Source of the DNA: an uncultured Methanosarcinaceae archaeon | GTDB lineage: Archaea > Halobacteriota > Methanosarcinia > Methanosarcinales > Methanosarcinaceae | NCBI GenBank assembly: GCA_963847185.1 | Contig: CAWJYV010000001.1 | Location: forward strand, 32,001 to 96,000 | Length of the DNA stretch: 64,000 nucleotides | Direction: 5' to 3' | In this document: positions 17,508-36,891 of the stretch, in pieces | Layout of the letters: each line of letters starts with the position of its first letter | How positions within the stretch are numbered: position 1 is the first letter of the stretch | Notes under the pieces: generated by a model | What the model was told of the DNA's origin: nothing | What the model saw: the letters and a program-made list of their open reading frames with translations, nothing else | Database searches by the model: none | Made by a program: the position numbers and the translations under genes

Positions 17508-20141
17508 TTATAACTTTTCTTCTGTGGTGAATTTTATGATGAATTTCGTCCCTTTATCTCTTATTACTTCTATCGTGCCATTTAGTTGGTCTACAAGGAT
17601 GTTTACGAGCTGTAAACCAAGGGTGTCGGGACTTCTAAAATCAATTTTTTCAGGGATGCCAACTCCATCATCTGAGACTATAAGAGTGTATTCAGTACTT
17701 TTTTCTTTATTGTCTTTTAGCTTATCTTCAGCTTTTTCACTGAAGAGTTTAATTTGAACTTCTCCGGTTTCCCTATTTAGAAATGCATATTTTAAAGAAT
17801 TCGAAACAAGCTCATTAACAATTATCCCTAAAGGGACTGCAATATCCATATCAAAGAAAACATTCTCTTCCATGTCAATGTTTAAGCTAACAGCTGTATT
17901 TCCAAGACTGTATGTGTGAAGAAGGTTTTCGACGAGCTTCTCAAGGTATAGTGAGAAATTCAGTGCTTCTTCTCCTTCGCCTTCATGCAGTTCCTCATGG
18001 ATAAGGGCAATGGATAATACCCTGTCATGACTTTCCCTAAAGGCTTCAAGGACTTCTAAGTCATTAATACATTCTCTGTCCTTGAACTTTCCAGCCTGAA
18101 GATCAAGAAGGGACGAGATGACTTGAAGGTTGTTTTTGATCCTGTGATGAATTTCCTTTTTACGGGCAGCTTCGATTTTCAAAAGGGTATTTTCTGCTTT
18201 TTTCCTATCAGTGATGTCCCTGGTAATAGCTGAGATGGCTACTAGTTTTCCATACGAATCAAAAACCGGAGAAAGAGTTATTGAGACATTGATTATTTTG
18301 TCATCTTTTCTTAATCGTAACGTTTCATAGTGCTTGATTTTATCTCTTTGTTTAACTCGTTCAACTAATCTTTGAATTTCCCCTTTAATATTATCCGGTT
18401 CAAGTATTGACACTTTTTTTCCAAGAATTTCTCCAGCTGAATAACCATAAATCTGCTCTGCACCCTTATTCCAGCTGGTAATTATGCAGTCAAGAGATAA
18501 AGTTATAATAGCATCATTTGACGATTCCACAGCATCTGCCAGTGTCTTGATTTTTTCTTCTGTTCTTTTACGTTCAGTAATATCCTGAGCCACTCCTCTC
18601 ACTCGAATAGGAGTGTTGTTCTCATCAAAAATAACTTCGGCTTTTGCATGAACTATGCGCTCTTCTCCACTAGCTAAAACAACCCTATAATCTATGTCAT
18701 AGGTCTTTCCGTTAAAAGCATCTTTAATGACATTAGCCAAATAGTCTCGATCGTTGGGGTGTACAGTACTTAAAGCGTCATTGTAGGATAAAGACTTTAG
18801 AGGGGTAATCCCAAGAATGCGATAAAGCTCATCAGACCAGTAAATTTTATCATTTACAATGTCCCAATCCCAATTTCCAACGTGTGCCATTTTTTGAGCT
18901 TCAGCAAGACGTCTCTCACTTTCTTTCAACGAATTGTAAGATTTCTCAAGCTCTACTGTCCGTTCTTTAACTTTTGCTTCCAAGCTATCATATGCTTTTT
19001 TAAGGGCATTTTCTACTTTTTTACGCTCTGTAATATCGATGAAAGCGGAAATTGACCCAGTTGGGTTTCCATCCTCATCAAGCAAGGGACTAGCGTTTCC
19101 CAATATATGTCTCACTGTGCCATCGAGATAGGCAATATCAAATTCATAGTTGCGTATTTCTTTGCCTGCTGCAGATAATTGAACAGGCAACTCTTCAGGT
19201 TGGAGCTCAACCCCATCTCTTAACATTTCAAATGTCTCAGGTCTCTCCCCTTCTGGGGCAGATTTGGATGCGTTTGCACCTTCAGGAATTCTGAGCCATT
19301 CATAGGATAGCCTATTCCCAGTTATATGAAGGGCTTTAGGATCATGTGTTATCCACACGGCTGCAGGGACTGCATCCAGTAACACTGCCAATTCATTAGA
19401 ATGAGCCCTTTCACGCTCTTCGCTTTCTTTAAGCGCTTCCTCTGATTTCTTACGCTCTGTAATATCAATTTGCACGCCATCCCAGATCGTTCGACCGTCT
19501 GATAGCCTACGAGGGTGGGAGCGTAATCGCATCCAGCGTATCTGACCATCTGGACGTCTCAGCGGTAGATCAATCTCAAAATCGGAGAGTTCGTATGCAC
19601 TGCGTGCCTCGGCTTCAACGAGCTTTTCGAAATAATCTGGTAGTATTTGTCGATGCAGTGTACCCGGATCTCGCAGTACATCTAGAGGGCTAACACCGTT
19701 AAGCTTCTTAATACCTGCACTGCAGTACAGGAAACGGACACTACCATCGGATTCATGGGTATATTGATAGACCGCACTATCTGGCAGGTTGTCGCCTAAG
19801 AGACGAAGCCGTTCCTCACTCTCACGAAGCCTTTCTTCAAGCTCCTTTTGGTCACTTATATCGAACCCATAAATGTTTACACATTCTTCTTCAGACAATG
19901 GGTGAAAAGATACAATATAGACTCTTTTATCTACTCTAACTTCAATTTTCTTAGGGCTATTACTCGAAATTACCCTTTGAACAAAATCTCTGACATTTGA
20001 AGGCAATATTTCTCCAACTCTCACCCCCCAACTATGTAACAAGGGCTCACCTGCCACATTTGAATAAAGAATTGTCCCATCCTTCCCTGCGCTCAGCACT
20101 GGGTTTGGATTCTGTTCAGGAAATTTTTCCATTCGTTTCAT
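17508..20141 (-). CDS. Multi-PAS sensor histidine kinase (HisKA_2 type)
   Basis: DITERK PAS ends, EIHHRIKNNLQV H-box, NELVSNSLK N-box, DDGVG G1-box. Confidence 0.95.
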   Translation of the reverse strand: MKRMEKFPEQNPNPVLSAGKDGTILYSNVAGEPLLHSWGVRVGEILPSNVRDFVQRVISSNSPKKIEVRVDKRVYIVSFHPLSEEECVNIYGFDISDQKELEERLRESEERLRLLGDNLPDSAVYQYTHESDGSVRFLYCSAGIKKLNGVSPLDVLRDPGTLHRQILPDYFEKLVEAEARSAYELSDFEIDLPLRRPDGQIRWMRLRSHPRRLSDGRTIWDGVQIDITERKKSEEALKESEERERAHSNELAVLLDAVPAAVWITHDPKALHITGNRLSYEWLRIPEGANASKSAPEGERPETFEMLRDGVELQPEELPVQLSAAGKEIRNYEFDIAYLDGTVRHILGNASPLLDEDGNPTGSISAFIDITERKKVENALKKAYDSLEAKVKERTVELEKSYNSLKESERRLAEAQKMAHVGNWDWDIVNDKIYWSDELYRILGITPLKSLSYNDALSTVHPNDRDYLANVIKDAFNGKTYDIDYRVVLASGEERIVHAKAEVIFDENNTPIRVRGVAQDITERKRTEEKIKTLADAVESSNDAIITLSLDCIITSWNKGAEQIYGYSAGEILGKKVSILEPDNIKGEIQRLVERVKQRDKIKHYETLRLRKDDKIINVSITLSPVFDSYGKLVAISAITRDITDRKKAENTLLKIEAARKKEIHHRIKNNLQVISSLLDLQAGKFKDRECINDLEVLEAFRESHDRVLSIALIHEELHEGEGEEALNFSLYLEKLVENLLHTYSLGNTAVSLNIDMEENVFFDMDIAVPLGIIVNELVSNSLKYAFLNRETGEVQIKLFSEKAEDKLKDNKEKSTEYTLIVSDDGVGIPEKIDFRSPDTLGLQLVNILVDQLNGTIEVIRDKGTKFIIKFTTEEKL

Positions 20142-20473
20142 TTTCCCTCTACCCAGATATCTTTGTTAATGAAATACACTAATCTTAATGGTCAAGAAAG
20201 GTTAATATCTTAACTTTATATTTTTTTATCGGTTATAACTCATAAAAATAATCTTCTCAAATACATTTTTTCGGCAGTGGTCACTGTAAAAGGACTGTTG
20301 GAGTCAGTGACTCTCGCTAGAGTGGATAGGATAATTACTAACGAACCCTGATTTCGGGCTTATAAGAAGGCTCGATTACCCTATACAAATCCCGAAATAA
20401 TATTAAAAAACGACATCAATTAACACTCTCAACGAACCCATATTTTTTATATTTTACGTTGTAATATATTTTC

Positions 20474-20818
20474 ATGCTGAACTCAATAGTAATAGAACTC
20501 GATGATGAATACATCGACAACGACCTCATGTATTTGAGCGAAGAGGGACTTTTTGGGCTTACTCAGTTAGGTACTCTCTATGGCATAGCCCTGTTATTAG
20601 CAATGAAGAAGATGGACGAGGGCTACACGCCTTTAGAACCAGTTATATATCACAATTATCCCGAGGACGCACTCATTTCACCAGCGAATGGTGGCATGAC
20701 ACTAACGCGTGTTGGTATCGACTGGACCGTACAATACATGGCAGATCACAAATTTAATCAGTTCGTTTATGATGTAGCTCGAAAAATCTATGAGAAGAAC
20801 ATAAAAGAAAATATCTAA
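20474..20818 (+). CDS. Hypothetical protein
   Basis: Isolated 114-aa ORF with protein-like composition. Confidence 0.6.
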   Translation: MLNSIVIELDDEYIDNDLMYLSEEGLFGLTQLGTLYGIALLLAMKKMDEGYTPLEPVIYHNYPEDALISPANGGMTLTRVGIDWTVQYMADHKFNQFVYDVARKIYEKNIKENI

Positions 20819-21070
20819 ACATTTATCAGTCTTACTTAATCATTTCTTTTTTAAAAGTGTCTCACTTCCAAACAGGACTATAACTATATTTGGTATATAC
20901 TATACTACTCCTTATATACTCGCCTAAACTTTTTTAGATTTAAGCTAAGTGTTCAGGATAAATTAGGAAGTGACGGTCAAATTTGCTTCCACTTCTTAAC
21001 AGACAGATCGAGAAACGTATAGAATTTCTTCTATTTTTGCACAAACGATATCAGTAGGCACAATTATCGG

Positions 21071-21095
21071 CAATACGTATAAATATGATACGTTT
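21071..21095. repeat. 25-bp direct repeat CAATACGTATAAATATGATACGTTT (copy 1; copy 2 at 21908-21932)
   Basis: Two identical copies; ACGTAT-N7-ATACGT dyad. Confidence 0.85.
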
Positions 21096-21179
21096 CTGAT
21101 GGCATAGCTATTAGAAGGCTCTATTACCTATACAAATCCCGAACTTCTTTCTTCCTTCTTTAAAAACACATCACTTCTT

Positions 21180-21301
21180 GGCTCTGTAGAAAATCGATTT
21201 AATTCAACTACAAGAGACTGAAATCAGATCAATGAAAGTGTATCAGGTTATTCAGTTCAAATTAATGAAGATTCGCTGTTTCAGAGGATTTCTACAGAGC
21301 C
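21180..21301. mobile_element. MITE-like element (~122 bp)
   Basis: Terminal inverted repeats GGCTCTGTAGAAA / TTTCTACAGAGCC. Confidence 0.6.
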
Positions 21302-21325
21302 AAAAAATGAGTTGAAAATAAATAA

Positions 21326-21562
21326 CTATAAAAACTCAAACCTTAGCTGCTCTGCCATCTCACGAAAAATGTTTCCATTGGTAGTCGTAACAAAAATTCC
21401 TTTCTCGAGTCTAATAAGTTGTCTGTCCTCCAACAATTCTAAATATCTATTGACAATGTTGAAATTCACTTTCGCTGCATATATTATCTGCGTTTTGCTG
21501 GCCCCATTCACCGCTATTTTTAAAATTTCTTCTGCAATGTCAACCCTGCTCCTTTGCACCAT
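21326..21562 (-). CDS. Small archaeal wHTH regulator (COG3432-like)
   Basis: RSRVDIAEEIL...KTQIIYAAKVNF...YLELL...TTTNG pattern; GAGGGG RBS. Confidence 0.85.
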   Translation of the reverse strand: MVQRSRVDIAEEILKIAVNGASKTQIIYAAKVNFNIVNRYLELLEDRQLIRLEKGIFVTTTNGNIFREMAEQLRFEFL

Positions 21563-21989
21563 ACAACCCCTCTTTGAAAGCTTAAAAAAGTTTTAAAAAA
21601 CATTCATTAAAAGATACTATGATGGACATTTATGCTCATTATTTGGCCAAATATATTCTACTCATTCTATATAACGGTGTTTATTTTATATAATAAACTA
21701 GATTTTCAAATAATAAAAATCCCAAATCGTAAATGGGATGATGATTCTCTACTTAAATATACTAAAATATATACTTTCACACGACTAAAATCACAAACAA
21801 AATAGGTTTTCTACAAAGCCCACCTCTTTTCATCTTTCCTTAAAATGGAGCAACGTGATCTAAAATCTCATTTTTGCATAAACCGCATCAGTTGGCTCAA
21901 TTTAAGACAATACGTATAAATATGATACGTTTTTATTAATATTGTCGATAAATTGACAAACAAGTTAATTAAAGAGGAGATTTTAGAAA

Positions 21990-22445
21990 ATGGTTGCACC
22001 AAAAGTTGAAGTTGAGAAAAGCAAGCACAAAAGTTGAGACACCAGTGCAGAACAAAGTAGATGAATATTTCCAGCAGAATGAGAAGTTCTTTAATACGGG
22101 CGACATAAACGCAAAAAAAGCATTTTTCATGCTCGGGCAATATTGCCGAAAAGTCGGGTTTGAGTGCGAGGAAAAGAAAATTGCTGAGAAGCGGCACAGA
22201 GAGCAAGTTTCAAGCAAGATTGGCACGTGAAATATAGTAACAACATGACTTATAGAGCCTTTACGATAATAATGAAACTGCTGGATAGCGCCGCTTTAAA
22301 GTGCAACCCGCAACTGTTTTATAAATGTCAGTGGTGCGTGCAAGGAACTGATGATCAATAGTAATCTTGTTAGTGACAAGAAAGCTCTAAGCACCGAAGA
22401 TGGAAATATGGCTTTCTCCTCGGACTCTACCAGCAATTCAAATAA
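21990..22445 (+). pseudogene. Multiply frameshifted ~150-aa gene resembling the Cas8b/Csh1 C-terminal (Cas11-like) domain
   Basis: GAGGAG RBS and ATG at 21990. Joined frames give ...EYFQQNEKFF..AKKAFFMLGQY...LSTEDGNMAFSLGLYQQFK*. Confidence 0.5.
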
Positions 22446-23733
22446 GTATTTTTTTTGCTCTTTTTCTTGCTTGAATGATTCATTGCTATTTATTGATGCA
22501 CGGTCACCAACCTTTTTACTATTTTTGGGATATTATTAGATTTTAAAAGTTCATCAGGATCTCCTCTACTAATTCTTTTACTTTTTTTGTTTCTCCTGTC
22601 TTGGGATCAGTTATTTCTTTTTTCATTGCATCATTACATGAATCAGTAGCCGTAATCATAGAGTTCTTTTGTAAACTTCTTATTTTCAAATTATTATCAA
22701 CATTAAGTGCGGAAGAATCACAATTCTCCGCATTCGGTTTCTTAACTAAAGAAGAAATATTCGATTTATTCTTTCCATAATATTTGTCCCATGTAGTTTT
22801 AAGGTCGGTTTCGTGTACATTATCTAAAAATTCCATCCAACGAAAGATCCACTCTGAACTATTTAATCGGCTTACATATGTTCTGAACACTTCTTCACAG
22901 TTAATTAAGTTATTAATAAACTCAGCATAAAGAGTCATCCAGTACAAATTATGTAAGGAAATAAGTATTCCTGAAGTAGTTTTCATATCCCATAAGTATT
23001 CAGGTTTCTCTAACTGTTTACAAATTGGGCAAATACATTCAAATGAACGAGAGTCCTTATTCTTCTGGCTTCCATTCATCTTCATACCAGGACCATAAAA
23101 ATCAAGGTGAAACATAAACTTACGGAGTGTTCTTCCAAAAGATGCAGATGACGAGTCAAAGTATATTTGAGTGTTAGTATATCTATTTGCATATGCAATT
23201 AATGGTAGTAGATATGGAGAGGATAGACCTAATAAATGGAAAGGTTTACTCACACTATATTCTATCGCGAAACCAAGTCTTAATGGCATTAAATATTTCA
23301 TCTCTGAGCTGGTAGACAGAGAAAATCCATCGTATTCATAATTGTGATTATCTGTTGTTACTTCATACCAGCGTTCCATATCCTCATAACAGTCACCATG
23401 AATACAGTTAAACAACTTAAAGTCTGAATTATAAGCATCATCTATATGTTTATCTTTATACTCAAACATTGATTGAGCATTTTTCGCAGACTCTTTTAGA
23501 CAATCTTCAAAAATCTTCTTATCTTTAAATTGACTCCATTTTCTCGGTGTTGGAATATCAAGAGTCATTCCAACATCACAAACATCCATTTGCCATTGAA
23601 TTACTTTTTCCCACGTAAGTTTTTTATGAATATCTGGATCTTTCAATTCACCCATTTTAGATTTCAAGATTTGATAACCACCGGAGTCACCAAAAAACAA
23701 AACATCGTTTCTAATTTCATTTCTGCCTTTTAC

Positions 23734-25376
23734 CTTGACTTTGTCACATTTCCTTTTCACGTCTACCGTGAAGTATAATTTTATTCCTATATATTTGAGA
23801 TCGTGAAACAAATAACAAGTGACTTTATCAAGTCAAACACTATCTCTGTAGAAAAATACATTTCTGAAACGAATCTTGAATTCTATTTTCAAACTAAAAC
23901 TCGTTGTGTCGCTTCAACGTGTATTGATTACCTTAATGGTTTGATGCTTCTTCCATATCGGAAAAATTTGAGAAAAATGGCAATTTATTGTTGTAAATGC
24001 TCTAACAACGAATCACTCAGCCATTTCCTCTCAACTTCTCCTTGGCTTTCTGCAGATCTCCTCAAATCTGTTCGAACAAAAGCCATTCAAACTATAGGCA
24101 AAAATGGTGTTCTTATACTTGACGAATCAAGCATAAAAAAATCTGGAAATAGTTCTGTTGGAGTTTCTCATCAGTATTGTGGCAACCTTGGAAAAAAGGA
24201 CAATTGTCAGGTTGGTGTATTCCTTGCTTATTTTAAAAAGAAGAGAAGAATGTTGATTGATGAGAGATTATATCTCCCACAAAAATGGATTGATGATAAG
24301 GTACGTTGTTTAAAGGCTAAAGTTCCTCTTGAAGAGATTAAATTCCGAACCAAGCATGAGCTTGGTCTTGAAATGATTGATAATGCAATAGAAGAAGGTA
24401 TTCCTTTTTCCTATGTTACAATGGATGGATTCTACGGTGAAAATCCGGAGTTGTTGACAGAACTTGAAATTAGAGGTTTAACTTTTGTTGCAGACATAGC
24501 TGTCGATACTCTTGTTTATATTGAGGAACCAGTTGCTGAGATACCTGCGAAAAAGGGAATAAGAGGAAGAAAACCCACTATCCCCAAGGTTTTGAATACA
24601 TTATCAACAAGAGTAGATTCTCTTTCCAATTCAGTTGAGGGATGGGAACTTATCAATGTTAGAAAAACGGAAAGAGGGTATAAAAAAGTCTATTTTAAGG
24701 CTATAAAAGTTTGGAGACGTCAGAATAAATTACCTTGTGAGAAGCCGGTATGGCTTCTTATAAGTAAAGATTCAGAATCAAATGAAATTAAATATTCACT
24801 ATGTAACGCCTCTGAAGATACATCATTCGATAAACTTGCAAAAATGCAGAGTTCAAGGTATTGGATTGAGAGAGCATTTCAAGATGCGAAAGGAGACTGT
24901 GGAATGGCAGAATACATGGTGAGAAATTGGAATGCGTGGCACCATCATATGGCATTAGTAATGCTTGCAATGCTTATTTTACTCTCCTATCAGAAAAAAT
25001 TCAACAAAATGTATAAGATGTCAATTCCTGGAGTTTTATGGATACTGAAGTACCATAATCCATTGAAAAGAATCGATGCTCGGGAAATTGCAGGAATCTT
25101 AAATCAAGATAATGAGTTGAGAAGGAAAGCAAGGGTTAGCAGATTAAGAAGTTCATAATAATTTTCTGATTGGAATAAAATGGATTCGTGTTCCGACGAC
25201 TGGTAAGTATACAATTTTGACAGGAAAAATTTATGACAGTAGAAATAATGGAGATAGTGATCAAGAAAAAAATAGAAGAAACAAGAATAGGAAAGGGAAA
25301 AGATTAAAGATACAGCAAATTTGAATGGAAATAAGTTGTGATGATTGTAAAAATGAGTTAATTTGACAAAGTCAAG
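23734..25376 (+). mobile_element. IS701-family insertion sequence (1643 bp)
   Basis: Inverted repeats CTTGACTTTGTCACATT / AATTTGACAAAGTCAAG (16/17 match); 4-bp TSD TTAC at 23730-23733 and 25377-25380. Confidence 0.93.
23803..25158 (+). CDS. IS701-family transposase
   Basis: ILDES..K.G..SVGV..QYCGNLGK..NCQV, DGFYG, RYWIERAFQDAK and WHHHMALV motifs. Confidence 0.93.
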   Translation: MKQITSDFIKSNTISVEKYISETNLEFYFQTKTRCVASTCIDYLNGLMLLPYRKNLRKMAIYCCKCSNNESLSHFLSTSPWLSADLLKSVRTKAIQTIGKNGVLILDESSIKKSGNSSVGVSHQYCGNLGKKDNCQVGVFLAYFKKKRRMLIDERLYLPQKWIDDKVRCLKAKVPLEEIKFRTKHELGLEMIDNAIEEGIPFSYVTMDGFYGENPELLTELEIRGLTFVADIAVDTLVYIEEPVAEIPAKKGIRGRKPTIPKVLNTLSTRVDSLSNSVEGWELINVRKTERGYKKVYFKAIKVWRRQNKLPCEKPVWLLISKDSESNEIKYSLCNASEDTSFDKLAKMQSSRYWIERAFQDAKGDCGMAEYMVRNWNAWHHHMALVMLAMLILLSYQKKFNKMYKMSIPGVLWILKYHNPLKRIDAREIAGILNQDNELRRKARVSRLRSS

Positions 25377-25708
25377 TTACATTATCTATTCCATAGTAAG
25401 CAGATACTAGCATTGCATTATAAGAAAAAAATGGATTATCCGACCACCAACTACACTGTTTATCTTTGCCTAGAATAGAGACACTAGATGGATAAAAGTA
25501 ATCAATATCTTCAGGTGTAATCGTAACCGGAATATAAATTAATTTATTTTCTTTAAATGTGTTTACCATGTTGTAACCCCTTAATTTCCTGATCTTTAAC
25601 GGACTTTGCGAAATTTAAAAAAAGAAATGAAGAGATAGATTTTTGTTAAAAATAAAAAATTTAAAGTTTTGGGTTGTATTTTTTGGTTTTTAAAACCTTT
25701 TCAGGATA

Positions 25709-27118
25709 TTAGATAGCACTAGAAGCTTTGCCATCTTTTTTATCTTCAATATCTTCCACAAATGTTGGTTTTCCCCAGTTCTCGAGTTCAGTTTCATGGA
25801 AGGGATCTACATAACTTCCACCAGGGAACATTTTCATTGCAATCTGGTAAACTGGCATATACTTGCTTTTATCCTTTTCACCTTTTTTAAATATAATATC
25901 AGGTTGATAATCTTCAACTGGTTCTAAATTACCTTTAAGTCCAAACAATACAAACTCGACAACACCGTTGAAATATACACCAGGTTTTCTTTCAGCATCA
26001 TATATCCCGATAGATTTCAGACTGAAACCCCAACTTCGCATGAGACCCCATCTATCTTCGAGATTTTGAGTAGTCGCCCATAAAAAAAGTGCAGAATCTT
26101 TTGAAATTTTGGTTTCTGTTTTCTTAGCTTCGTCGGCATTTTTTGGATCCGCAACTATAACATTATACACCCCTGGTGGTGGTACAGCTATCATTTTAGG
26201 TGGCTTATTAGTATGTTCTTTCTTGTACTTCTCGAAATCTTTATCGGCTTTGTTTGGTGTGACAGCGCCTGTTATAGCTTTATCTACAAGCTCTTTTGCT
26301 TTCGCAGCAACGTCCTTAATTTCTTGTGGAGCATCTTCTTTAGCGTTAGGGTCTTTTGCAGCTTCCATTAACTTGAGTAACTTATATCCTGCATCAATTG
26401 AGAGGCGATCAGCCCTCATTTCATCCATAACATATTTGGCATCTTTATCTTTGTTATTATACGACTTCCCTATATATTTCAGATTTGAAAGGGTGCCTTC
26501 ACTGAGACCTATTACTTTAGCTTGCTTTTCGGTAGTGCTACCATATTCTTCGTCCCGATAACTCAGATCTGAGTTAACGGAATTTTGTTTAAGTTTACTT
26601 TGTTTTCGCTCATCGGCGCGTTTAGTGTAAATTTCTTCTAAAAGTTCAGTTTCTTTAAAAATCTGTAATGGATTTTTCTTTCGATGCTTATTGAATTCAA
26701 TTATAGCTTCTTCTTCATCTACATCTAAAGAAAACGGCTTCATGAAGCACAGAGCTTCAATTTCTTTGTATTCTTTATTTTCTTTTTTCTTATACTCTTC
26801 TTCTTTTTGTAATTCTTTTAATGCTCTCCATCTGCGATGACCAGATATAATCAGATACTCCTGGTCAATGACAATAGGTTCAAGCTGGCCAAGGTCTCTA
26901 ATACTCTCTTTTAAAGCCTCATCAATTGTTTCCTTCCCATATATCTCAATATTTTTTGGATGTTCTTTAAGCTTTTTAGGATTGATAGGAAAAATTCCGC
27001 TAATTACTTCTTTTTTCTTTGGTTGTTCTTGTTTTTCATCTTGCAGTACTTGTTCATCTTGCAGTACTTGTTCATTATCATGAACATGTTTTTGAGTATC
27101 TTCTTTATTTACTTCCAT
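25709..27118 (-). CDS. ParB/Srx-domain + HTH + degenerate MT-A70-like methyltransferase fusion
   Basis: LKESI..LGQLEPIVI..IISGHRRWRA (ParB); QAKVIGLSEGTL (HTH); YNVIVADPK, ALFLWAT, WGF, EFVLFG (MT-A70-like, DPPW changed to DPKN). Confidence 0.85.
   Translation of the reverse strand: MEVNKEDTQKHVHDNEQVLQDEQVLQDEKQEQPKKKEVISGIFPINPKKLKEHPKNIEIYGKETIDEALKESIRDLGQLEPIVIDQEYLIISGHRRWRALKELQKEEEYKKKENKEYKEIEALCFMKPFSLDVDEEEAIIEFNKHRKKNPLQIFKETELLEEIYTKRADERKQSKLKQNSVNSDLSYRDEEYGSTTEKQAKVIGLSEGTLSNLKYIGKSYNNKDKDAKYVMDEMRADRLSIDAGYKLLKLMEAAKDPNAKEDAPQEIKDVAAKAKELVDKAITGAVTPNKADKDFEKYKKEHTNKPPKMIAVPPPGVYNVIVADPKNADEAKKTETKISKDSALFLWATTQNLEDRWGLMRSWGFSLKSIGIYDAERKPGVYFNGVVEFVLFGLKGNLEPVEDYQPDIIFKKGEKDKSKYMPVYQIAMKMFPGGSYVDPFHETELENWGKPTFVEDIEDKKDGKASSAI
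26555..26580. promoter_or_regulatory. Intragenic 26-bp palindrome, candidate parS-like site
   Basis: CCGATAACTCAGATCTGAGTTAACGG is the exact reverse complement of the copies at 53509-53534 and 57130-57155. Confidence 0.55.
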
Positions 27119-27190
27119 ATATTATAATAAAAGTTTTTATTATAAAAGACTTACTAATATTTTTATATATGTTTGTGTTAATATATTGTT

Positions 27191-28756
27191 ATGTTCTATG
27201 AAATTTTTGAAAAAAAATGGTTTAATTATAAGCCTTATAACACTTATTCAAACGAAAAAAAAATTGATGTACTTCTTACCTTACGTAGTGTTTTTAATAT
27301 AAAATTAGAAGCAACTGAAAATATTAGAGAATTGAGATATTTAGATGTTTTAGAGGAAAAAATATTAAGACTAGTACAGTCTGACTTAATAGAGGATATA
27401 TATAAGTGCGAGAATGAAATAAACAAACTAAACGAAGATATTACAGATCCAGATATACTAGAAAAAATAGAGACTGCTGGTATTGATGGGACAATGCATA
27501 AAATAACTGGACATGAAAAATTATCTGATAACGGCTTTGATCATATTAAAGGACTACTTCTATTGAATGAACTTCACGTACTTCAAATGGAATCGTTAAA
27601 GGATCGAAAACGTATTCCTTATATCAGTGAATATGAAAAAAAAGTTTTGAGTGAAATATTAAACATTTTATCAATTTCTATTTTCGATAACTACCAAAAA
27701 ATGGAATCTATTTATCGTCGGAAGATTCCAATTGATTTTAAATATAGACGAGAATTAAAAGATGCAATAGAAGATTCAGAAATAGAAAATTCTAAAGTTT
27801 TAGGTCCGGAAAAAAGTCATATCCAGGTTGATTACCTAAAAACAGAAGATCTAGATTTAAGAAAATGGGAGCCTAAAAAATGGTTTACAAGACGATATGA
27901 TTTATTTCGGGCTTCATACGATCCATATTATTTCGCTTATATATTTAATTTTCAAGCGTTAATGAACGGTTTTGACAGATATTCTCTAAAGAAACAAATT
28001 GAAGTTGGTCTTGCTAATTATTGCTCAATTCAAGTACAACTCAAAGCTCTTTACATGCGGTTAAATGAAAAAAAAGAGCTAACTGAGTATGAAGAAATAA
28101 TATGGAATTATAGAATTAGAACACTTTTCTCCAGTAAGATTTATTATGACGTTCTTATAGCAAAAATATTCTTAATCGATATCAAAAAGGATCATTTTTA
28201 TAAAGACAATATATTAAACGAACTTGAAAGAAAAGTATCAAAAAATATTAAATTAGAGAAGTACCACATAGAAAATGACCAACCATTTACTCTATCTATG
28301 GAATCTTCTTATTGTGAACCTGCTAAAAAAAATAAAGAACTTCTAGAAGAAGCAGAAAAAGTTTACAACTATAAGTACAATTCTTTGTGTTGTTTTATTA
28401 AACCTGATCAAATGAGTGTTGACAGAGCCTATATACCTCCTAGTGATCCTTACAACCCTAACCAAGCAGAGTTCATTAAATTTCTTTTGGCAAAACATGA
28501 GTTAGAAACAGTAGAAATCGAAGCATTGCTTCAATATAATCGAACATTAAATAAATCGAGATATGAAAATAAATATGATAAAATTTTCGTTAAAAGCCTA
28601 TGTGCTTACAAAACATCGTGTGTTCTACTGACAGATGAAGAAATATGGGATGCATACTATACGCTCCCAGATGATTATCCTGATAAAGGAAAAATTCTCA
28701 ATGAAATAAAAAAGGCAAAGGTTGATCTTGATCCAAAGGAAATTAATAAAGAGTAA
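27191..28756 (+). CDS. Hypothetical protein (521 aa, very AT-rich)
   Basis: Long ORF; no motif recognised. Confidence 0.75.
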   Translation: MFYEIFEKKWFNYKPYNTYSNEKKIDVLLTLRSVFNIKLEATENIRELRYLDVLEEKILRLVQSDLIEDIYKCENEINKLNEDITDPDILEKIETAGIDGTMHKITGHEKLSDNGFDHIKGLLLLNELHVLQMESLKDRKRIPYISEYEKKVLSEILNILSISIFDNYQKMESIYRRKIPIDFKYRRELKDAIEDSEIENSKVLGPEKSHIQVDYLKTEDLDLRKWEPKKWFTRRYDLFRASYDPYYFAYIFNFQALMNGFDRYSLKKQIEVGLANYCSIQVQLKALYMRLNEKKELTEYEEIIWNYRIRTLFSSKIYYDVLIAKIFLIDIKKDHFYKDNILNELERKVSKNIKLEKYHIENDQPFTLSMESSYCEPAKKNKELLEEAEKVYNYKYNSLCCFIKPDQMSVDRAYIPPSDPYNPNQAEFIKFLLAKHELETVEIEALLQYNRTLNKSRYENKYDKIFVKSLCAYKTSCVLLTDEEIWDAYYTLPDDYPDKGKILNEIKKAKVDLDPKEINKE

Positions 28757-28886
28757 ACACCAGATAGAGAGTTATACAAGCATATAACTGTCCAGGTTCG
28801 AAACCTTCATCCATTTCTTGATTGGGTCTGATAGGTGATAGAGATGTTGACATATTTCTTGTCAGCATCAATTACTGGTCTTGTCA

Positions 28887-29030
28887 TTAGGCCACTTCAC
28901 TTGCAGCTTCGAGAACAACTTCGACCATTGCCTTTTCAATTGATGATCCATGCTTCAGTACATACTCAATACTCTCAGGATATTGTTTGATAATATCCTG
29001 TGCCGTTGTAACCTTCTTTTGTAACCTCAT
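28887..29030 (-). CDS. 47-aa hypothetical protein MRLQKKVTTAQDIIKQYPESIEYVLKHGSSIEKAMVEVVLEAASEVA
   Basis: Helical-looking ORF downstream of the integrase; its stop overlaps the next ATG (TAATG). Confidence 0.5.
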   Translation of the reverse strand: MRLQKKVTTAQDIIKQYPESIEYVLKHGSSIEKAMVEVVLEAASEVA

Positions 29031-29368
29031 ATAAACTATAAATTATTGATTCATTCCTAATGTAAGATAAGATCGTAGTGATTAGATGCCTTCTTTTATA
29101 AAACAAAATTACATTGAGGCTTTAAAACAATACGTATTTATAGGATTCGACTTGCTCAAGATTTGATCTATCCCAAAGACAAAACAAGAATCGAAATAAC
29201 TAAAGGGCACTGGATTTTCCAGGTCATATAACCTTAGTAGTCTCCTGTTAGATTAGTGCGTGGCTTCTAATAAGATATGCACCCAATAGGGGTTTTAGAG
29301 AAAAGTAGAGAGAATAACGATAATCACAATATGTATTAATAGGAATCGCAAAAGTTGAGCAAAAAAAA

Positions 29369-30565
29369 TTACTTTATTTTGGATGAAACTTTAGCCAGTA
29401 AGGTTGGATCTTGTTGTAAATATGTGAGTAAATCTGATATTAGCATTTCCTTATCCTGTGCTGCTTCCTGTGTGACCGGCATCCCACAATCACAATATCT
29501 CATTCCTGACGGGATCGGCATACTGCACCTGGCACATCTATTAATCTTGTTTCCTTCCTTATCCTGAACAACTCTTATCCCGTAAGATGCAAGTACAGCA
29601 TTATCAATTTCGGGATTCGACAAATGTATATACGTTTCCGTTTGGCTGCTAGATCCAGCCCATCCAAATTGCTTCTTAAGCTGTTGTTCAGTCATTGTAT
29701 TGGCGAGTCTAGTTGCCTGAGAATGGCGGAGTAAATGACAATATACGTTCTTTTTAATCCCAGCTTTCTTGGCTGCCTTTTTTAACAACAGATTCATTGA
29801 TATTGTTCTTAGTGGCGTGTGCACACGCGGTTCGTCCTTAGCTTGTTTCTGTTTATTCTTACTATAACTTCTATTAGTATACTCTCTAGCTGTAGTGAAT
29901 AATGGAGCTTGGGGATCATTTGCATTTGGATGATCAACAAGCCACTGCTTAAGATACACCTGGTACTTATGCAACAACACCTGTCTCTTCCCAGTTTTAC
30001 CATTAAGTGTTATATGGAACCCATAGGGATGATCTTTAACATCGCCTATTTTACAGTTTTGGATTTCCCCAACTCTTGCTCCTAACTCATAAATTATAGC
30101 TACCAATGCTTTATCCCGGATGCCAATACAACATGCAATTATTTTCTCAACTTCTTCCTCACTAAGGATATCTTCCGACTCTAATTTTTTACCTTCTACT
30201 CTAGCAAACCCGAACTTTGCAAGCTCAATTAGCTCTTTATTATCAGTGCTTGCACCATATCCTTTCAGGAACCTTTGAAACGTAATTTTGTACTGCATCT
30301 TACTTGTCGGGCTGGCAGGATTCCCATTTTTCTTTGTCCAATCATTGATTGCGTCTTGGATATCATTAACATCCTTCTTGGTCAACTTGTCCAGGTCGGT
30401 CTTAGTATGTGTCAACAGGAACCGCAAAAAATGCTCATTGTTTCTAATGGTAGCTTCCTTCAAACCACTACGATTCAGGTCCTTTAGATACTCAAGAACA
30501 ATGCTCTGGTTATGTTCGGAAATATTATTCTCAATACAAAAGTTAACTATATTATGCGTATCCAT
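29369..30565 (-). CDS. Tyrosine recombinase/integrase with C-terminal Zn-ribbon
   Basis: R (GARVGE), K (GKTG), HLLRH, FGW and Y (TYIH) residues; CARC..CDCG; GGAG RBS before ATG 30565. Confidence 0.92.
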   Translation of the reverse strand: MDTHNIVNFCIENNISEHNQSIVLEYLKDLNRSGLKEATIRNNEHFLRFLLTHTKTDLDKLTKKDVNDIQDAINDWTKKNGNPASPTSKMQYKITFQRFLKGYGASTDNKELIELAKFGFARVEGKKLESEDILSEEEVEKIIACCIGIRDKALVAIIYELGARVGEIQNCKIGDVKDHPYGFHITLNGKTGKRQVLLHKYQVYLKQWLVDHPNANDPQAPLFTTAREYTNRSYSKNKQKQAKDEPRVHTPLRTISMNLLLKKAAKKAGIKKNVYCHLLRHSQATRLANTMTEQQLKKQFGWAGSSSQTETYIHLSNPEIDNAVLASYGIRVVQDKEGNKINRCARCSMPIPSGMRYCDCGMPVTQEAAQDKEMLISDLLTYLQQDPTLLAKVSSKIK

Positions 30566-30960
30566 AGAAACTTTCTCCAATTTATAATTATACAACGCAT
30601 AATATATATAAGATTGGATAATGTATATTATTAACTGGTTTTTGGGAAGGAAATGATTAATATTACTAAACATTTGTAAATAAATTACTTTTAGGAGTAG
30701 AAGGTTTTGGGGGTGGTAGGCAAAATAACCTTTACAATAAAATTTAGTTTATAGAGTTTTAAGTAAGCTAGCTTCCATATGAAATTTAATAAGCGTGTGA
30801 CGTGGTGCCAGTCTAAACACTTGTAGAAGAGATTGTCCGCGGGATATGTAGAAGACTGTCCCCGCACCTGTTATTAATTTATACCCCTGTGACTGTAGTC
30901 GGGCAGCTCGGAAATAATAATAATAAGAAGGGAAAATATAAGCAAACTGTTCGTATAAAA

Positions 30961-31080
30961 TATATACTACAAAAGTTTCAAAAAAGGAATGATGTTTATT
31001 ATCGGATGGATAATAGGTCTATACCACAAAACATTATTGAGCACCGGAATTTGTAATAAGTTATATACTACAAAATGTTG
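30961..31080. repeat. Three iteron-like direct repeats TATACYACAAAA
   Basis: Copies at about 30961, 31019 and 31062, in the same position relative to the wHTH paralog as 1282-1408. Confidence 0.65.
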
Positions 31081-31083
31081 ATA

Positions 31084-31710
31084 TTACTCCAACTCGACTT
31101 CACCGCTAACAATCTCCCTCATGCGATTTTCCATGTATAATATTGTTTCTTTCTTTTTTATATACTGCTGCCCGTATGTGGTTATTGAGTAGTACGGCAA
31201 TAGTTGTTCAGGGAGCAATTTCAAGTCTTCTTTTGTTGTTATATGACGACTGACAGGGAATTTACCATAGGTCTCCATATGCTGAGACCTTTTTGCAACC
31301 CGATTCAGGCTAACGCCGCGCTGAATTCTGTTCAAATAATTTGCATACGCCTCTATGCCCTTTTTTGTGATTTTGTAGCGATAGAGACCATTCGGCCCTT
31401 TCTTTTCTAATCGCTGTATGTAAGGTAGTTTAATGATCTTGCCATTTCTTTTCTGGATCTTCTGATACCGTGACATGACACTTGAAACTGCTGTATATTG
31501 AACCCCCGTAATTCTTTCAATATCTCGTGTAGTCAGTGGTTCTTTATCTTCTAACCATGTGTTATACAGCGCCTCTAAAATACGGAACTTTAAAAAGTTG
31601 GGTTTATGAGCATATCCGATTTTCACGATATTTCTCACCTGAAAGTTTTGTGTGAAAATTAATATCGGAAGCCTCGATAATAAGGGTTTGTTTCCGCTAT
31701 CCGCAGGCAC
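31084..31710 (-). CDS. Winged-helix DNA-binding protein (paralog of 1413-2036)
   Basis: Shares GYAHK.NFLKFRILEAL, LTTRDIE.ITGVQ and KGPNGLYRYKITKKG with 1413-2036. Confidence 0.75.
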   Translation of the reverse strand: MPADSGNKPLLSRLPILIFTQNFQVRNIVKIGYAHKPNFLKFRILEALYNTWLEDKEPLTTRDIERITGVQYTAVSSVMSRYQKIQKRNGKIIKLPYIQRLEKKGPNGLYRYKITKKGIEAYANYLNRIQRGVSLNRVAKRSQHMETYGKFPVSRHITTKEDLKLLPEQLLPYYSITTYGQQYIKKKETILYMENRMREIVSGEVELE

Positions 31711-32228
31711 AATATATATTAATAGGGTTACTCAGGCAAGTTTTTCGGGATATAAAAAAGCAAAATTCCGACTTTACATTTATCCCTGTATAATTCCCTT
31801 AATTATATGGCTTCCCGGAAACTGGAGATACAAGCCTTAGAAGAAGCTAAAAGCTTGGCTGCGAGGCTTAGCGTGGCTTCCAATAATAAGTATGTAGAAT
31901 AAAGGTCCGGTAGGATAAAAAAGAGATTGGAGTGATTGTCCTGTTAATTTTATGGTCACAATGTTTGGAGTTGAATTAAGGGTAGCCACGAGCTAAAAGC
32001 CTATTAATTAAATTCAGGTGAAACCATTATTTATTTTTTGGAGTCATTTCTGAGTACAAGCTGGTTTTTTAACTTCTTATATTTAAAGTGCCCTTTGTAT
32101 TAGCAATCCTTACTCAGAATGTCTACATATCAGTTTCTTTTGATATCCACCCTACCGGTTTTTAATATTTAGATTATATCATTGTTTATATTAGCTTTTG
32201 AAATTCAATCAATTAAAGAGGCTGGGAA

Positions 32229-32378
32229 ATGAAAGAAGAAAATGAAATAGCACCGGAAGAGGGTTCTGAAAGCAACTCAAAAGATGACGATGAAGACCTT
32301 CTGTACACTCATAAGCCTGAAAGTCGAGGTAGTACTATGCAGTGGAACTCTGCTTTTTGCAGAAAGCCTGGTCATTGA
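32229..32378 (+). CDS. 49-aa acidic small protein
   Basis: GAGG upstream; lies in front of the CMD gene on the same strand. Confidence 0.45.
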   Translation: MKEENEIAPEEGSESNSKDDDEDLLYTHKPESRGSTMQWNSAFCRKPGH

Positions 32379-32418
32379 ATTTCACCATATATCTAGTTGT
32401 TTTTAGGAGTTGATTTAA

Positions 32419-32769
32419 ATGTCATTTTTGAACGAAATGATGCCTGAAACTGCTGAAGCTTTCGGACAAATGAGAAATTCCATTTTCAAAGATGGTTTCT
32501 TGGATCTCAAAACTAAGGAACTGATCGCTATTGCATCCTCAGTACTTATGCGCTGCCAATTTTGTGTTGACACCCACTCACAAAGAGCAATTACAGCAGG
32601 AGCCACAAAGGAAGAGATTGCAGAAGCAATTTCAGTTTCAATGTTTATTGCTGCTGGTTCACAGATAGGATGGACCAATATATATGAAGAAAGCATATAT
32701 GATAAAATCTTTAAAAAGGATGCTAAAGAAGAAGGAGAAGAAGACTGTAATTGTTGTTGTAGTGACTGA
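32419..32769 (+). CDS. Carboxymuconolactone decarboxylase/AhpD-like protein
   Basis: LDLKTKELIAIA..CQFCVDTH..A..AGAT.EEI.EA motif. Confidence 0.9.
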   Translation: MSFLNEMMPETAEAFGQMRNSIFKDGFLDLKTKELIAIASSVLMRCQFCVDTHSQRAITAGATKEEIAEAISVSMFIAAGSQIGWTNIYEESIYDKIFKKDAKEEGEEDCNCCCSD

Positions 32770-32822
32770 AAGCTAATTTTATTATTTTTAAATTTTCCTT
32801 CACTTCTTATCTAATTTTTGTT

Positions 32823-33290
32823 TTAATTTTGCTCCTTTACTACAAATACAGAACTTTTTGAATGCCTTACTACCTTATCTGTTACGCTTCCAAGCAAAAA
32901 TCTTTCTAATCCTCCTTTACCAAGAGTTCCCATTATTATCACATTTACTTTTTTCTGCTCTGCAAATTCTAAGATTGCATTAGCCGGATTACCTTCCATA
33001 ACCATACCTTCAAAGTCTATTCCCTTATTCTTTGCAACATCATTCGCATATTGAATAGCATTGGCTCCTTCTTGACGTAGAGTTTCCTCCATAACATCCC
33101 ATTTAGAACCGAGATAAATTGGTGTTTCCAACGTAGGCGGAATATATGCATTTTTGTCCAAAACATAAAGGGCATAGACTTTTGCACCCATTAATTTTGC
33201 AAGTTCCATTCCTTGAAGTACGGCATTTTGACTACACTTAGACCCATCTGTTGCGATTAAAATTGTTTGAAAATTATTGTTAAGAGTCAC
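32823..33290 (-). CDS. Universal stress protein (UspA family)
   Basis: ILIATDGS...IIMGTLG...LLGSVTDKVVR motif. Confidence 0.93.
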   Translation of the reverse strand: MTLNNNFQTILIATDGSKCSQNAVLQGMELAKLMGAKVYALYVLDKNAYIPPTLETPIYLGSKWDVMEETLRQEGANAIQYANDVAKNKGIDFEGMVMEGNPANAILEFAEQKKVNVIIMGTLGKGGLERFLLGSVTDKVVRHSKSSVFVVKEQN

Positions 33291-35286: not shown

Positions 35287-35691
35287 TCAAGTATCTCTTA
35301 TTACACGTATAATTTTTTCTATGTATTCGGGCTTTACATCCGAAGGAATTGTTTTTTTAATACCTAAATCAGTAATCATTATATGGATATCTGATTTCAA
35401 GCCTGCCTCATCTAGCTTTTTTGTTGCACAGCAATCAGTGCAGCCATCAATAACTAGAATTCGGAAGCCATCTGCGACTGCATCTTCTACAGAGGCAACT
35501 CCTTTGTGAGCCGCTGCAGCTCTGTACATATCCGGTCTTCTGAAGGCAAGAGCTGACGCTGCCTGCATCGTAAGTTTTCCGGTGTTTGAAAGACCTGAAC
35601 AAGCAAAAATAAGGGTTCTTCTTGTAGCTTTTTGTGCTTTATTCTCACTTTGAAGTAAAGGCTCTGAGTATCCTGTTTCTACTGATTCCAT
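35287..35691 (-). CDS. DGC-domain (putative Zn-binding) protein
   Basis: FACSG.SN.G and IDGC..CC motifs. Confidence 0.85.
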   Translation of the reverse strand: MESVETGYSEPLLQSENKAQKATRRTLIFACSGLSNTGKLTMQAASALAFRRPDMYRAAAAHKGVASVEDAVADGFRILVIDGCTDCCATKKLDEAGLKSDIHIMITDLGIKKTIPSDVKPEYIEKIIRVIRDT

Positions 35692-35794
35692 GCCTAATTA
35701 CAACCTTCTAAGAAATTATTTTAAAAATGTTGAAATAGGTAATATAATAGTCTCTAAAGCATTGTCTAAGAAAGAATAGTTGTAGTGAAGAAAT

Positions 35795-36118
35795 TTAGAC
35801 AGCATTGAATTCTATACTGATGCTACCTGCTTTTTTTACCAGAGATTTTGCAAGGAAACCACTTTCCATTCTACAGAGGTTGAGTACTGCGCAGGGTACA
35901 AGGCAATTTGAAGAACAATTTGCTTCCTGTGCCCTATCAATCACATAATTGTTTTTGATGTCCAGAATTTCCATCATAGGAACTTCCATATGAGAGAACT
36001 TCTTTATCTTTTCACATGGGGTTTCTATGTCAACAATAATTTTATTTCCTTTTTTGCTTCCAGTTATCTTATGGACAAAGCCACAAATAGTGGAATTTAC
36101 AGTAAATTCAGTCAACAT
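35795..36118 (-). CDS. Conserved Cys-containing hypothetical protein (DUF6951-like)
   Basis: ICGF, TPC and CLVPC motifs; operonic position. Confidence 0.75.
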   Translation of the reverse strand: MLTEFTVNSTICGFVHKITGSKKGNKIIVDIETPCEKIKKFSHMEVPMMEILDIKNNYVIDRAQEANCSSNCLVPCAVLNLCRMESGFLAKSLVKKAGSISIEFNAV

Positions 36119-36209
36119 GTCACCTTCGATGTTAATCATTTAAGTCTATTTTAAGTCATTATATGAAAGATAGCTTTAAGCGATATATATAAGTTAATTG
36201 AGTCCGAGA

Positions 36210-36593
36210 TTACTCGGACTGCAGTATCTCAAGGGTTTTTTCTAGAGCTTCTGAGATCTCACTGTCCTTGAGATTTTTATCTTTATTCTTTTTGATCCCC
36301 AGCTCAGAGATGATAATATGTTCATCTACTTTGAAACCTGCAAGTTCGAGAGTTTTGCTTGCACAGTTAACCGGGCACCCGTCAATAGCAACTATCCTGT
36401 CCGAACTTTCAGCGGACTTCATAAGTCCAGGGGCCCTAGCTCCTATTCCTACGGTACACATTAAATTCCCAATGTTTTGTTTTTCGAGTTCAATTGCGAT
36501 TATATTTGAGATCTGACCCACATTTGAAGCCCCAACACATGGGAAAATTGCCACATTTGCTGAACCGCATGCACATTTTGTCTCTTCTGTCAT
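36210..36593 (-). CDS. DGC-domain protein
   Basis: FPCVGASNVGQ and IDGCPVNCA motifs. Confidence 0.88.
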   Translation of the reverse strand: MTEETKCACGSANVAIFPCVGASNVGQISNIIAIELEKQNIGNLMCTVGIGARAPGLMKSAESSDRIVAIDGCPVNCASKTLELAGFKVDEHIIISELGIKKNKDKNLKDSEISEALEKTLEILQSE

Positions 36594-36657
36594 TGTTTAT
36601 CCTCCTTTCTGAATTCTCATCTGGCTGTTAATCTTTTTGCTACAGACACGTCTTCTT

Positions 36658-36891
36658 TTAATGAGAAATCCATTTTTTGATTTCTTTTTCATCTGGAACT
36701 TTGCCTGCAAGTTTTACGTCTCCATCTATAACAACTGCAGGGGTAACCATAACGCCATAGCTCATTATTTTTTCAATATCCTCAACTTTAATTACCTCAG
36801 CCTCAACACCAGTTTGCTTGAGTACTTTTTCAATTGCTTCTTTTGTTTTCTTGCACTTGGAGCATCCTGTTCCGAGAACTTCTATTTTCAT
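36658..36891 (-). CDS. Small redox-active disulfide protein (thioredoxin-like, MTH895 family)
   Basis: MKIEVLGTGCSKC...GVMVTPAVVIDG motif. Confidence 0.9.
   Translation of the reverse strand: MKIEVLGTGCSKCKKTKEAIEKVLKQTGVEAEVIKVEDIEKIMSYGVMVTPAVVIDGDVKLAGKVPDEKEIKKWISH

Follow-up and report, generated by a model that had tools for sequence, protein, structure and literature searches.

We analyzed a 64,000-nucleotide stretch (hereafter the window) of the genome of an uncultured Methanosarcinaceae archaeon. A first-pass annotation had singled out two adjacent genes in it, one for a protein with ParB and MT-A70 methyltransferase-like domains and one for a protein with the fold of tRNA-guanine transglycosylase (TGT), as a putative 7-deazaguanine DNA-modification module. 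Our best explanation is that the TGT-fold gene probably encodes a virus-type, DpdA-like DNA-guanine transglycosylase derived from archaeal TGT (ArcTGT) and is disrupted by an IS701-family insertion sequence (IS). The gene would be cargo on a small integrase element in the methanogen chromosome, where it lies beside the element's own gene for a ParB-CTPase fused to a dead MT-A70 domain. DNA modified with 7-deazaguanines is known from bacteria, phages and the viruses of haloarchaea and Sulfolobus. The locus is laid out as follows, in window coordinates.

22543..23733, minus strand: 3' fragment of the TGT-fold gene, codons 64-459 when numbered as in database protein P0002, with GDSGG, LDxP, HLLG, FDSSS and CxCxxC...H
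23730..23733, no strand: target-site duplication, GTAA on the minus strand, second copy at 25377-25380
23734..25376, plus strand: IS701-family insertion sequence of 1,643 bp with terminal inverted repeats and a transposase reading frame at 23803..25158
25377..25569, minus strand: 5' fragment of the TGT-fold (DpdA-like) gene: codons 1-64 in full, then the first base of codon 65, with the GTAA duplicate at its end
25570..25708, no strand: 139-nucleotide spacer between the ParB/MT-A70-like gene and the TGT-fold gene, bridged by a 1,384-nucleotide contig from metagenome run X1
25709..27118, minus strand: fusion of ParB-N and a degenerate MT-A70-like domain, 469 amino acids, from ParB_N, PADLOC MTase_II and family profile matches
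26807..26944, minus strand: ParB N-terminal (CTPase-fold) core, residues 59-104, with GHRRWRA, from Pfam and the conserved motif
26138..26149, minus strand: DPKN in place of the MT-A70 motif DPPW, residues 324-327; active relatives have 21 further alignment columns directly behind it that are deleted here

The minus-strand open reading frames (ORFs) are 22543..23811 (422 amino acids, aa), 25372..25569 (65 aa) and 25709..27118 (469 aa), and a plus-strand ORF of 451 aa (23803..25158) lies between the first two. The TGT-fold translations contain GDSGGYQ, LDIP, FHLLG, FDSSS and CICPIC...SLHNLYW, and the 469-aa translation reads VIVADPKN. The ParB/MT-A70-like gene is upstream of the TGT-fold gene in the same orientation, with 139 nucleotides (nt) between them, as the first-pass annotation had described (about 140 bp).

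The TGT-fold gene has 459 codons and is split at codon 64/65. The 451-aa ORF encodes an IS701-family transposase (NF033540, 301.6 bits against a cut-off of 150; DDE_5, E = 6.5e-50), and the terminal inverted repeats are 20 nt long (23731-23750 and 25360-25379). Sequence reading and a script both placed the IS ends at 23734 and 25376, with a 4-bp GTAA duplication on both sides. Transposase, inverted repeats and short target duplication are all typical of the family, and nothing about this IS is unusual. Removal of the IS and one duplicate in silico yielded 459 codons with no stop. The repaired product aligns without gaps to the intact 459-aa protein P0002, with 402 of 459 residues identical (~87%), among them 58 of the 64 residues of the 5' fragment, and it retains 18 of 18 conserved family positions. 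The 459-aa TGT-fold protein reconstructed earlier, with its motifs, is thus borne out.

Contigs from three of four public metagenome runs (X1, X2 and X3) carry an IS-free junction from 23729 to 25377, in which exactly 1,647 nt are skipped. The X1 contig (1,384 nt, 37 differences) runs from the 3' fragment through the empty site, the 5' fragment and the spacer to 716 nt into the ParB gene. Therefore, an intact gene adjacent to the ParB gene exists in another population. A full-length IS copy that is 100% identical occurs elsewhere on the window's own contig, and other copies in the genome are 91-100% identical. These data indicate that the insertion is recent and strain-specific. In the present genome the enzyme is presumably inactive through the IS split, because its first 64 residues are separated from the remainder.

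By its sequence, the repaired protein is a predicted member of the TGT superfamily, with the catalytic Asp in DSGG, an Asp in FDS and a CxCxxC...H zinc site. D79, D256 and C296/C298/C301/H324 (P0002 numbering) are invariant or nearly so in sets of 17 and 78 family sequences, and all are present in the window. When a profile of 17 close members was compared with solved structures, the best match was ArcTGT (1iq8, E = 1.2e-12). The DSG Asp (D95 region of 1iq8), the FDS Asp (FDSAS) and the zinc site (CSCPVC...HNL) align, and we take these to be the catalytic and zinc-binding positions of ArcTGT. The window fragments have no Pfam match even at E ≤ 10, one weak match to an unnamed phrog, 45.9 bits to TIGR00449 (cut-off 47.6) and 39.6 bits to the ArcTGT equivalog model TIGR00432 (cut-off 350). 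A word-indexed search of about 5.8 billion non-redundant proteins found 31 relatives at E ≤ 0.001, most of them with a precomputed PF01702 match. An exhaustive search of 1.84 billion representatives found 461 at E ≤ 0.001, 217 at 1e-10 and 14 at 1e-30.

We compared the protein with housekeeping ArcTGT by hidden Markov model (HMM) and by phylogeny. In the host genome, TIGR00432 scores the window gene at 36.1 bits and the host ArcTGT at 635.6, so that only the latter reaches the equivalog cut-off of 350. Two quick maximum-likelihood trees separate 10 cellular ArcTGTs from all family members, a split with a Shimodaira-Hasegawa-like approximate likelihood-ratio (SH-aLRT) support of 100. In these trees the window clade (six rows) is sister to L105/P0017, followed by L106/P0024 and then by the L107 group. 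These results support a TGT-fold protein distinct from housekeeping ArcTGT; clustering with ArcTGT, together with modification of tRNA only, is what the first-pass annotation had named as fatal to its proposal.

The TGT-like family is mostly viral, and its nearest lineages are linked to genes for preQ0 synthesis. We searched 120 loci, 115 of them holding a TGT relative, by tblastn with the Que and FolE proteins of loci L105 and L107. FolE was found in 50 of the 120 loci, QueE in 20, QueC in 8 and QueD in 3; counted together, folE and/or que genes flank the match in 50 of the 120. Among the 14 loci with the strongest TGT match (E ≤ 1e-14), folE and/or que genes flank the TGT gene in 11; in two of the other three (L026 and L108) the TGT match lies at a contig end. 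At L105 and L107 we read the ORFs and confirmed them with Pfam. The L107 order is PTPS/QueD, a radical-SAM protein (QueE-like), QueC (231.9 bits), GTP cyclohydrolase I (170 bits) and the TGT-like gene, which is followed on its 3' side by genes for a PD-(D/E)XK nuclease, a primase large-subunit-like protein, ERCC4-HhH, RFC and a family-B polymerase (PolB). The L105 order is QueD, radical-SAM, FolE, TGT (PF01702, 30 bits) and DHH. Viral dpdA genes typically stand in such a folE/que arrangement, according to passages in PMC6884629 and PMC10516641. We also read folE/que genes with a transglycosylase gene at phage 9g and HVTV-1.

In cellular genomes the gene is rare: it was found in none of 200 other genomes in a sample of the order, in 1 of 58 in the genus and in 1 of 400 in a sample of the phylum. 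P0002 had no match among plasmids, a pattern search of viral contigs with P0005 returned none, and GenBank phages gave 10 weak partial matches only. Family members also occur in a few cultured jumbo phages of Vibrio, Pseudomonas putida and Xanthomonas (MT366761, at L187:5623-7212; PP496436-PP496444; PV764601-PV764603), where they are annotated as TGT-domain or hypothetical proteins. The 12-kb neighbourhood in the Vibrio jumbo phage contains no annotated que gene.

The first-pass annotation had proposed that preQ0 made by the host renders que genes dispensable on the element. The host is methanogenic (McrA, 224.9 bits) and encodes ArcTGT, an ArcS-like protein, QueC (203 bits) and QueD (96 bits). 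With ArcTGT, QueC and QueD present, a supply of preQ0 by the host is plausible. In the parts of PMC6884629 that bear on this, 76 phages with dpdA only are thought or shown to use host preQ0, and an excerpt of PMC8651126 says the same of the dpdA-only HRTV-29 and phage 7-11.

We propose that an intact enzyme would work by the TGT base-exchange mechanism. The Asp of FDSSS would attack C1' of deoxyguanosine, guanine would leave, and preQ0 from the host archaeosine pathway would be inserted to give dPreQ0 in element DNA. As with phage DpdA, dPreQ0 may shield the element's DNA from restriction during replication or transfer. Functional statements of this kind for the TGT-like family are drawn from homology and context.

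The DpdA-like reading is well supported by context and not by any named DpdA model. Like viral DpdA (DpdA1 of 9g and CAjan, DpdA2 of nt-1), members of the family are TGT-fold proteins on viral or mobile DNA, encoded in the nearest lineages directly behind folE/queD/queE/queC. Unlike them, the family keeps a full ArcTGT-type CxCxxC...H site, is very distant in sequence and is nearly without counterparts in PHROGs: 19 of 78 members match the unnamed phrog_10773 and 3 of 78 match phrog_887, "queuine tRNA-ribosyltransferase". The family HMM scores the host ArcTGT at 71.7 bits, the Vibrio phage nt-1 protein, which we took as DpdA2 because it is the sole match in that genome, at 53.3, and phage 9g DpdA1 at 15.2; hhalign gives 9g DpdA1 a probability of 85%. 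With nt-1 DpdA2 and 9g DpdA1 as queries, family members were matched ahead of any of the 10 ArcTGTs, all of them weakly. In the trees both DpdAs fall on the family side, on very long branches.

Several results weigh against this reading. The closest solved protein by profile is ArcTGT: the 78-member profile scores 1iq8 at 90.1 bits and bacterial and eukaryotic TGTs at 42-56, and bacterial DpdA (7ui4) at only 28.2. The NCBIfam DpdA model NF041059 is matched by 6 of 78 members, and P0002 is not one of them. DpdA4 of HVTV-1 (gp69, DUF6610) shares an archaeal virus context in which QueC/QueD/QueE/FolE precede a transglycosylase, but it has an hhalign probability of 2% and the family HMM matches nothing in it; we rejected an identity with DpdA4, since similarity to gp69 is undetectable. 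Campylobacter phage CP220, a DpdA3 phage, likewise has zero family-HMM matches at E ≤ 10. In an approximately unbiased (AU) test, a tree uniting the 9g and nt-1 DpdAs with ArcTGT was not rejected (p = 0.318). PADLOC matched neither the window TGT fragment nor P0002 nor the L107 protein. We do not count this miss against a DpdA function, because 9g DpdA1 also goes without a PADLOC match and nt-1 DpdA2 has only a marginal unrelated one, so that neither matches a DpdA model there. Linkage to preQ0 genes on viral or mobile DNA, which marks the DpdA class, is seen in the relatives and not in the window's own element, which has zero que genes. The sole other copy found in the genus (G205:C286:2483-3436) is also truncated.

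Taken together, sequence comparison suggests a family nearer to ArcTGT than to any named DpdA. The first-pass comparison with DpdA holds for the gene order of the nearest lineages, behind queD-queE(-queC)-folE, and not for NF041059, 7ui4 or PADLOC, where matches are weak or missing. Intact copies elsewhere, which it had proposed to seek, are represented by P0002 and the IS-free junctions but not by the other genus copy. That copy (locus L185) starts near residue 213, behind unrelated stop-bearing sequence and about 130 nt from a contig end; its truncation may be another insertion or an assembly break.

We next consider the partner protein. Its ParB_N domain scores 28 bits (cut-off 26.3) over residues 59-104, and GHRRWRA occupies the position of the ParB nucleotide-binding box, which is conserved as GHRRW[RK][AV] across 18 family sequences. 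PADLOC matched residues 338-448 to MTase_II, a type II methyltransferase model (E = 1.9e-10). The window protein has no Pfam MT-A70 match at E ≤ 10; its homologue P0182 matches PF05063 (MT-A70) at 30.3 bits (cut-off 23.9), from profile position 36 onward only. A profile of the 18 members matches the MT-A70 chains 7f4r/7f4l (E = 8e-12), METTL3 (1e-6) and Noc/ParB (3e-8). Homology to the MT-A70 fold is thus evident at the level of the family profile, and DPPW and the loop after it are missing.

None of the 18 aligned members has DPPW. The motif reads DPK[NSGI], DPPD, DPQD, DPIN, DPDD or other variants, and its Trp is missing in all 18 aligned members of this methanogen-element clade. By contrast, the viral relatives L124 and L125, which share the architecture at 26-30% identity by tblastn (31-36% by alignment), keep GHRRW[QR]A, DPPW and the following loop. 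Compared with L124/L125, 21 alignment columns directly after ADP[KP] are missing in the window protein, P0182 and the G192 protein. The clade thus resembles other ParB-CTPase/MT-A70 fusions in architecture and differs from them in these losses. DPKN is present as the first-pass annotation reported, but a decay of DPPW in this copy is rejected, the loss being family-wide. Its proposal of a non-catalytic domain fared better: the loss of the Trp together with the 21-column deletion makes it very probable that the MT-A70 domain is not a methyltransferase, and points to a conserved pseudo-methyltransferase derived from an active ParB-MT-A70 enzyme. Because the dead domain is well conserved across 18 sequences, some role appears to be retained. 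METTL14, a dead MT-A70 partner, offers an analogy.

An 18-nt tandem repeat (2.3 copies, window 27035-27075) at the 5' end of the ParB/MT-A70-like gene encodes a QVLQDE repeat. Metagenome contigs and window disagree here in a single 18-nt unit.

Archaea are enriched in ParB-CTPase/MT-A70 fusions according to a recent survey (PMC12704722, in part), from which, by term counts in the text available, the words DpdB and transglycosylase are absent.

Do the two genes form a unit? The first-pass annotation held that they do, as a minimal two-gene DNA-modification unit, and an obligate version would have the ParB protein act as a DpdB that loads or activates the transglycosylase on DNA. We consider this unlikely, and the evidence on it is divided. 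The genes are co-oriented and close, the X1 contig (record 2) bridges the arrangement in another sample, and the ParB box and dead MT-A70 domain are conserved. Four of the six closest TGT homologues (P0004-P0007) also match the ParB-MT homologues P0184, P0180, P0181 and P0182 in source, contig count and longest contig, with shared signatures of two contigs, longest 40234; 33768; seven contigs, longest 9040; and 13271. Co-occurrence on one contig was judged from these signatures, not from gene order. A precedent comes from the Dpd system of Salmonella Montevideo (7ui4), in which a TGT-fold protein adjoins a ParB-fold protein: as given in part of PMC10164549, bacterial DpdA requires DpdB, a ParB-fold NTPase (an ATPase) with a DGQQR motif and a helical C-domain, for preQ0 insertion.

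Other observations argue against such a unit. Homologues of the 521-aa protein encoded next to the pair share signatures too (4892 with P0002; 40234; 21139 with a member of the P0005 cluster); this neighbour co-occurs equally well, as a shared backbone predicts. In two related genomes of the same genus, G192 and G214, a conserved 600-bp block (77-85% nt identity) leads directly into the ParB/dead-MT-A70 gene (42% identical, motif DPPD, same deletion), with no TGT gene. Both elements have the integrase, and thus the dead domain also occurs without a TGT. In G192, the genes that follow encode a 625-aa homologue of the 521-aa protein and an integrase of 89% identity, and a DUF3987 gene lies upstream. 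In G214 the ParB/MT-A70 gene is open for its C-terminal 203 aa only, a different 728-aa ORF precedes the integrase, and the 521-aa homologue is not present. A ParB-MT relative was found in 0 of the 120 loci and a TGT or que gene in 0 of 51 ParB-MT-like viral loci. The partner is matched by no DpdB-named model in PADLOC (E ≤ 1) or NCBIfam (E ≤ 0.01) scans. Its three PADLOC matches are two MTase_II models and SspB, and its Pfam and NCBIfam matches are generic ParB_N/ParB. It consists of ParB_N, an HTH-like middle and the dead MT-A70 domain, unlike the DGQQR ParB fold and helical domain of DpdB. Phage DpdA works without DpdB, according to a portion of PMC6884629, and the TGT-fold gene itself is inactivated by the IS in the present genome.

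These data indicate that the co-occurrence of the pair in close relatives is real and that shared element ancestry explains it equally well. Adjacency in other genomes, whose lack the first-pass annotation would have counted as a refutation, is seen in one X1 contig and not in G192 and G214, and support for the two-gene unit is weak. With TGT-less related elements and no co-occurrence in viral loci, the ParB/dead-MT-A70 gene is most likely element backbone, and the transglycosylase gene cargo. The ParB protein would then most likely be a backbone DNA-binding protein that acts independently of the transglycosylase, while a DpdB-like helper role, by analogy, is possible. A more elaborate version of that analogy strikes us as quite doubtful. 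In it, the ParB-CTPase clamp with its dead MT-A70 domain was kept in methanogen mobile elements to load or target, as a pseudoenzyme partner comparable to METTL14, a DNA transglycosylase that derives from ArcTGT and was acquired more recently. What had been an anti-restriction device of the ParB-adenine-methyltransferase type would thereby have been converted to 7-deazaguanine insertion on the host archaeosine precursor, giving a DpdA/DpdB-like pair that arose apart from the bacterial one.

A second alternative is that the protein is a TGT paralogue acting on tRNA in the archaeosine pathway, not on DNA. ArcTGT is its nearest solved and cellular relative by profile, 73 of 78 members match TIGR00432 weakly (best E = 2.1e-21), and the zinc and catalytic residues are TGT-type; both enzymes presumably use preQ0. 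We nevertheless regard action on tRNA as very unlikely. The score lies tenfold under the ArcTGT cut-off, and the family forms a separate clade. P0002 is 22% identical to the host ArcTGT over 229 residues (BLASTP; aligned residues 79-301 only), and in hhalign only ArcTGT residues 80-327 align, so that the match ends with the catalytic domain and the C-terminal tRNA-binding domains of ArcTGT have no aligned counterpart. The host already owns an ArcTGT and an ArcS-like gene, and the family is viral or mobile instead of housekeeping, lying on viral contigs near DNA-replication genes and preQ0 operons and being nearly absent from cellular genomes.

We give very little credence to another base or substrate (a 7-deazapurine such as 7-carboxy-7-deazaguanine, CDG, or preQ1) or to a non-modifying role of the family. 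DpdA subfamilies do differ in substrate specificity, as stated in part of PMC10516641, but the nearest lineages are linked to the full preQ0 pathway including QueC, and similarity is highest to the preQ0-using ArcTGT.

In the archaeal genome G496 of the same phylum (L211:9987-20000), a 342-aa distant TGT-like family member is followed by genes for a BrxD-like ATPase, a weak DpdH-like protein and a DpdJ-like helicase (PADLOC, E = 1.7e-35), a region that looks like a Dpd-type defence island in an archaeon. That the window gene is the modification arm of a Dpd-like restriction-modification defence marking self DNA, for which this region would be a precedent, merits scarcely any credence: no Dpd restriction component was matched by PADLOC among the TGT fragment, the ParB-MT protein and the 521-aa protein, dpdC-K genes are absent here, and the close relatives, which belong to viruses or elements, come with preQ0 operons and lack the helicase/nuclease set.

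The preferred reading of a DpdA-like cargo gene places it on an integrase element whose neighbourhood holds a tyrosine recombinase, a 521-aa protein, a split small gene and a winged helix-turn-helix gene, at a G+C content of 0.31-0.34. Its remaining features are these.

27191..28756, plus strand: 521-aa protein of unknown family, a divergent neighbour conserved in the element family
29369..30673, minus strand: tyrosine recombinase (integrase) of the element, Phage_integrase E = 4e-18
21994..22539, plus strand: split remnant of a 148-169-aa gene, whole in related elements, within the conserved block 21870-22516

The integrase has copies of 89-93% nt identity in the same genome and in G192 and G214. 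The 521-aa protein has no match in Pfam, NCBIfam, PADLOC or PHROG, and aligns with its G192 homologue at 27% over 156 aa and 43% over 75 aa. Of the 148-169-aa gene that the G192 and G214 elements carry whole, the window has two separate ORFs, and it lacks the DUF3987 gene seen in the G192 element. The window copy looks like a decaying remnant. No att-like (attachment-site) direct repeat was found flanking the element, the window has no tRNA gene, and an Rfam search of 19000-33000 gave no match, so that none of these features marks a border of the element.

A second integrase copy in the same genome (C1:6049-8015, C1:8215-11500, locus L212) is 93% identical in nucleotides and split over two frames, a pseudogene. 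Homologues of a 208-aa ORF (window 31084-31710) lie beside it, and a third homologue is at window 1431-2036. These repeats indicate several related element remnants within about 60 kb. Direct repeats of 63 nt, at 21033-21095 and 21870-21932, flank a segment of about 775 nt that holds a winged-helix gene (21326-21562, HTH_45). This segment (window 21033-21932) is missing from related G214 sequences, in which the flanks are contiguous. Elsewhere, the window encodes an IS4/IS5-type transposase (4729-5544; DDE_Tnp_1 and DUF4096), four PAS/HisKA_2 histidine kinases (17508-20141, 46742-49198, 50166-52889 and 54145-56475) and an ArsR/ArsP-permease/DGC-domain cluster (about 35287-41074).

Full-text literature searches found no link between DpdA and Methanosarcina, and the 12 best-ranked of 159 papers, in the portions available, do not report 7-deazaguanine DNA modification in methanogen viruses or elements. 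Within a known kind of system, the family forms a divergent branch that resembles ArcTGT and is here seen for the first time in methanogen elements; published lists of DpdA subfamilies may already include members.

Because the copy of the locus studied here is broken, its interest lies in the family and not in the physiology of the present genome. With 461 representatives at E ≤ 0.001, the family makes up a large viral branch of the TGT superfamily that is mostly uncultured, and it largely escapes the curated DpdA models tried (NCBIfam NF041059, PADLOC and Pfam DUF6610). Where surveys depend on such models, the DNA deazaguanine systems of archaeal viruses and elements may therefore be undercounted. 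The ParB-fused dead MT-A70 domain is a clean case of a conserved pseudoenzyme. If the transglycosylase is active on DNA, methanogen elements could be modifiable through the host's archaeosine precursor, which would be relevant to genetic tools and restriction barriers in these organisms.

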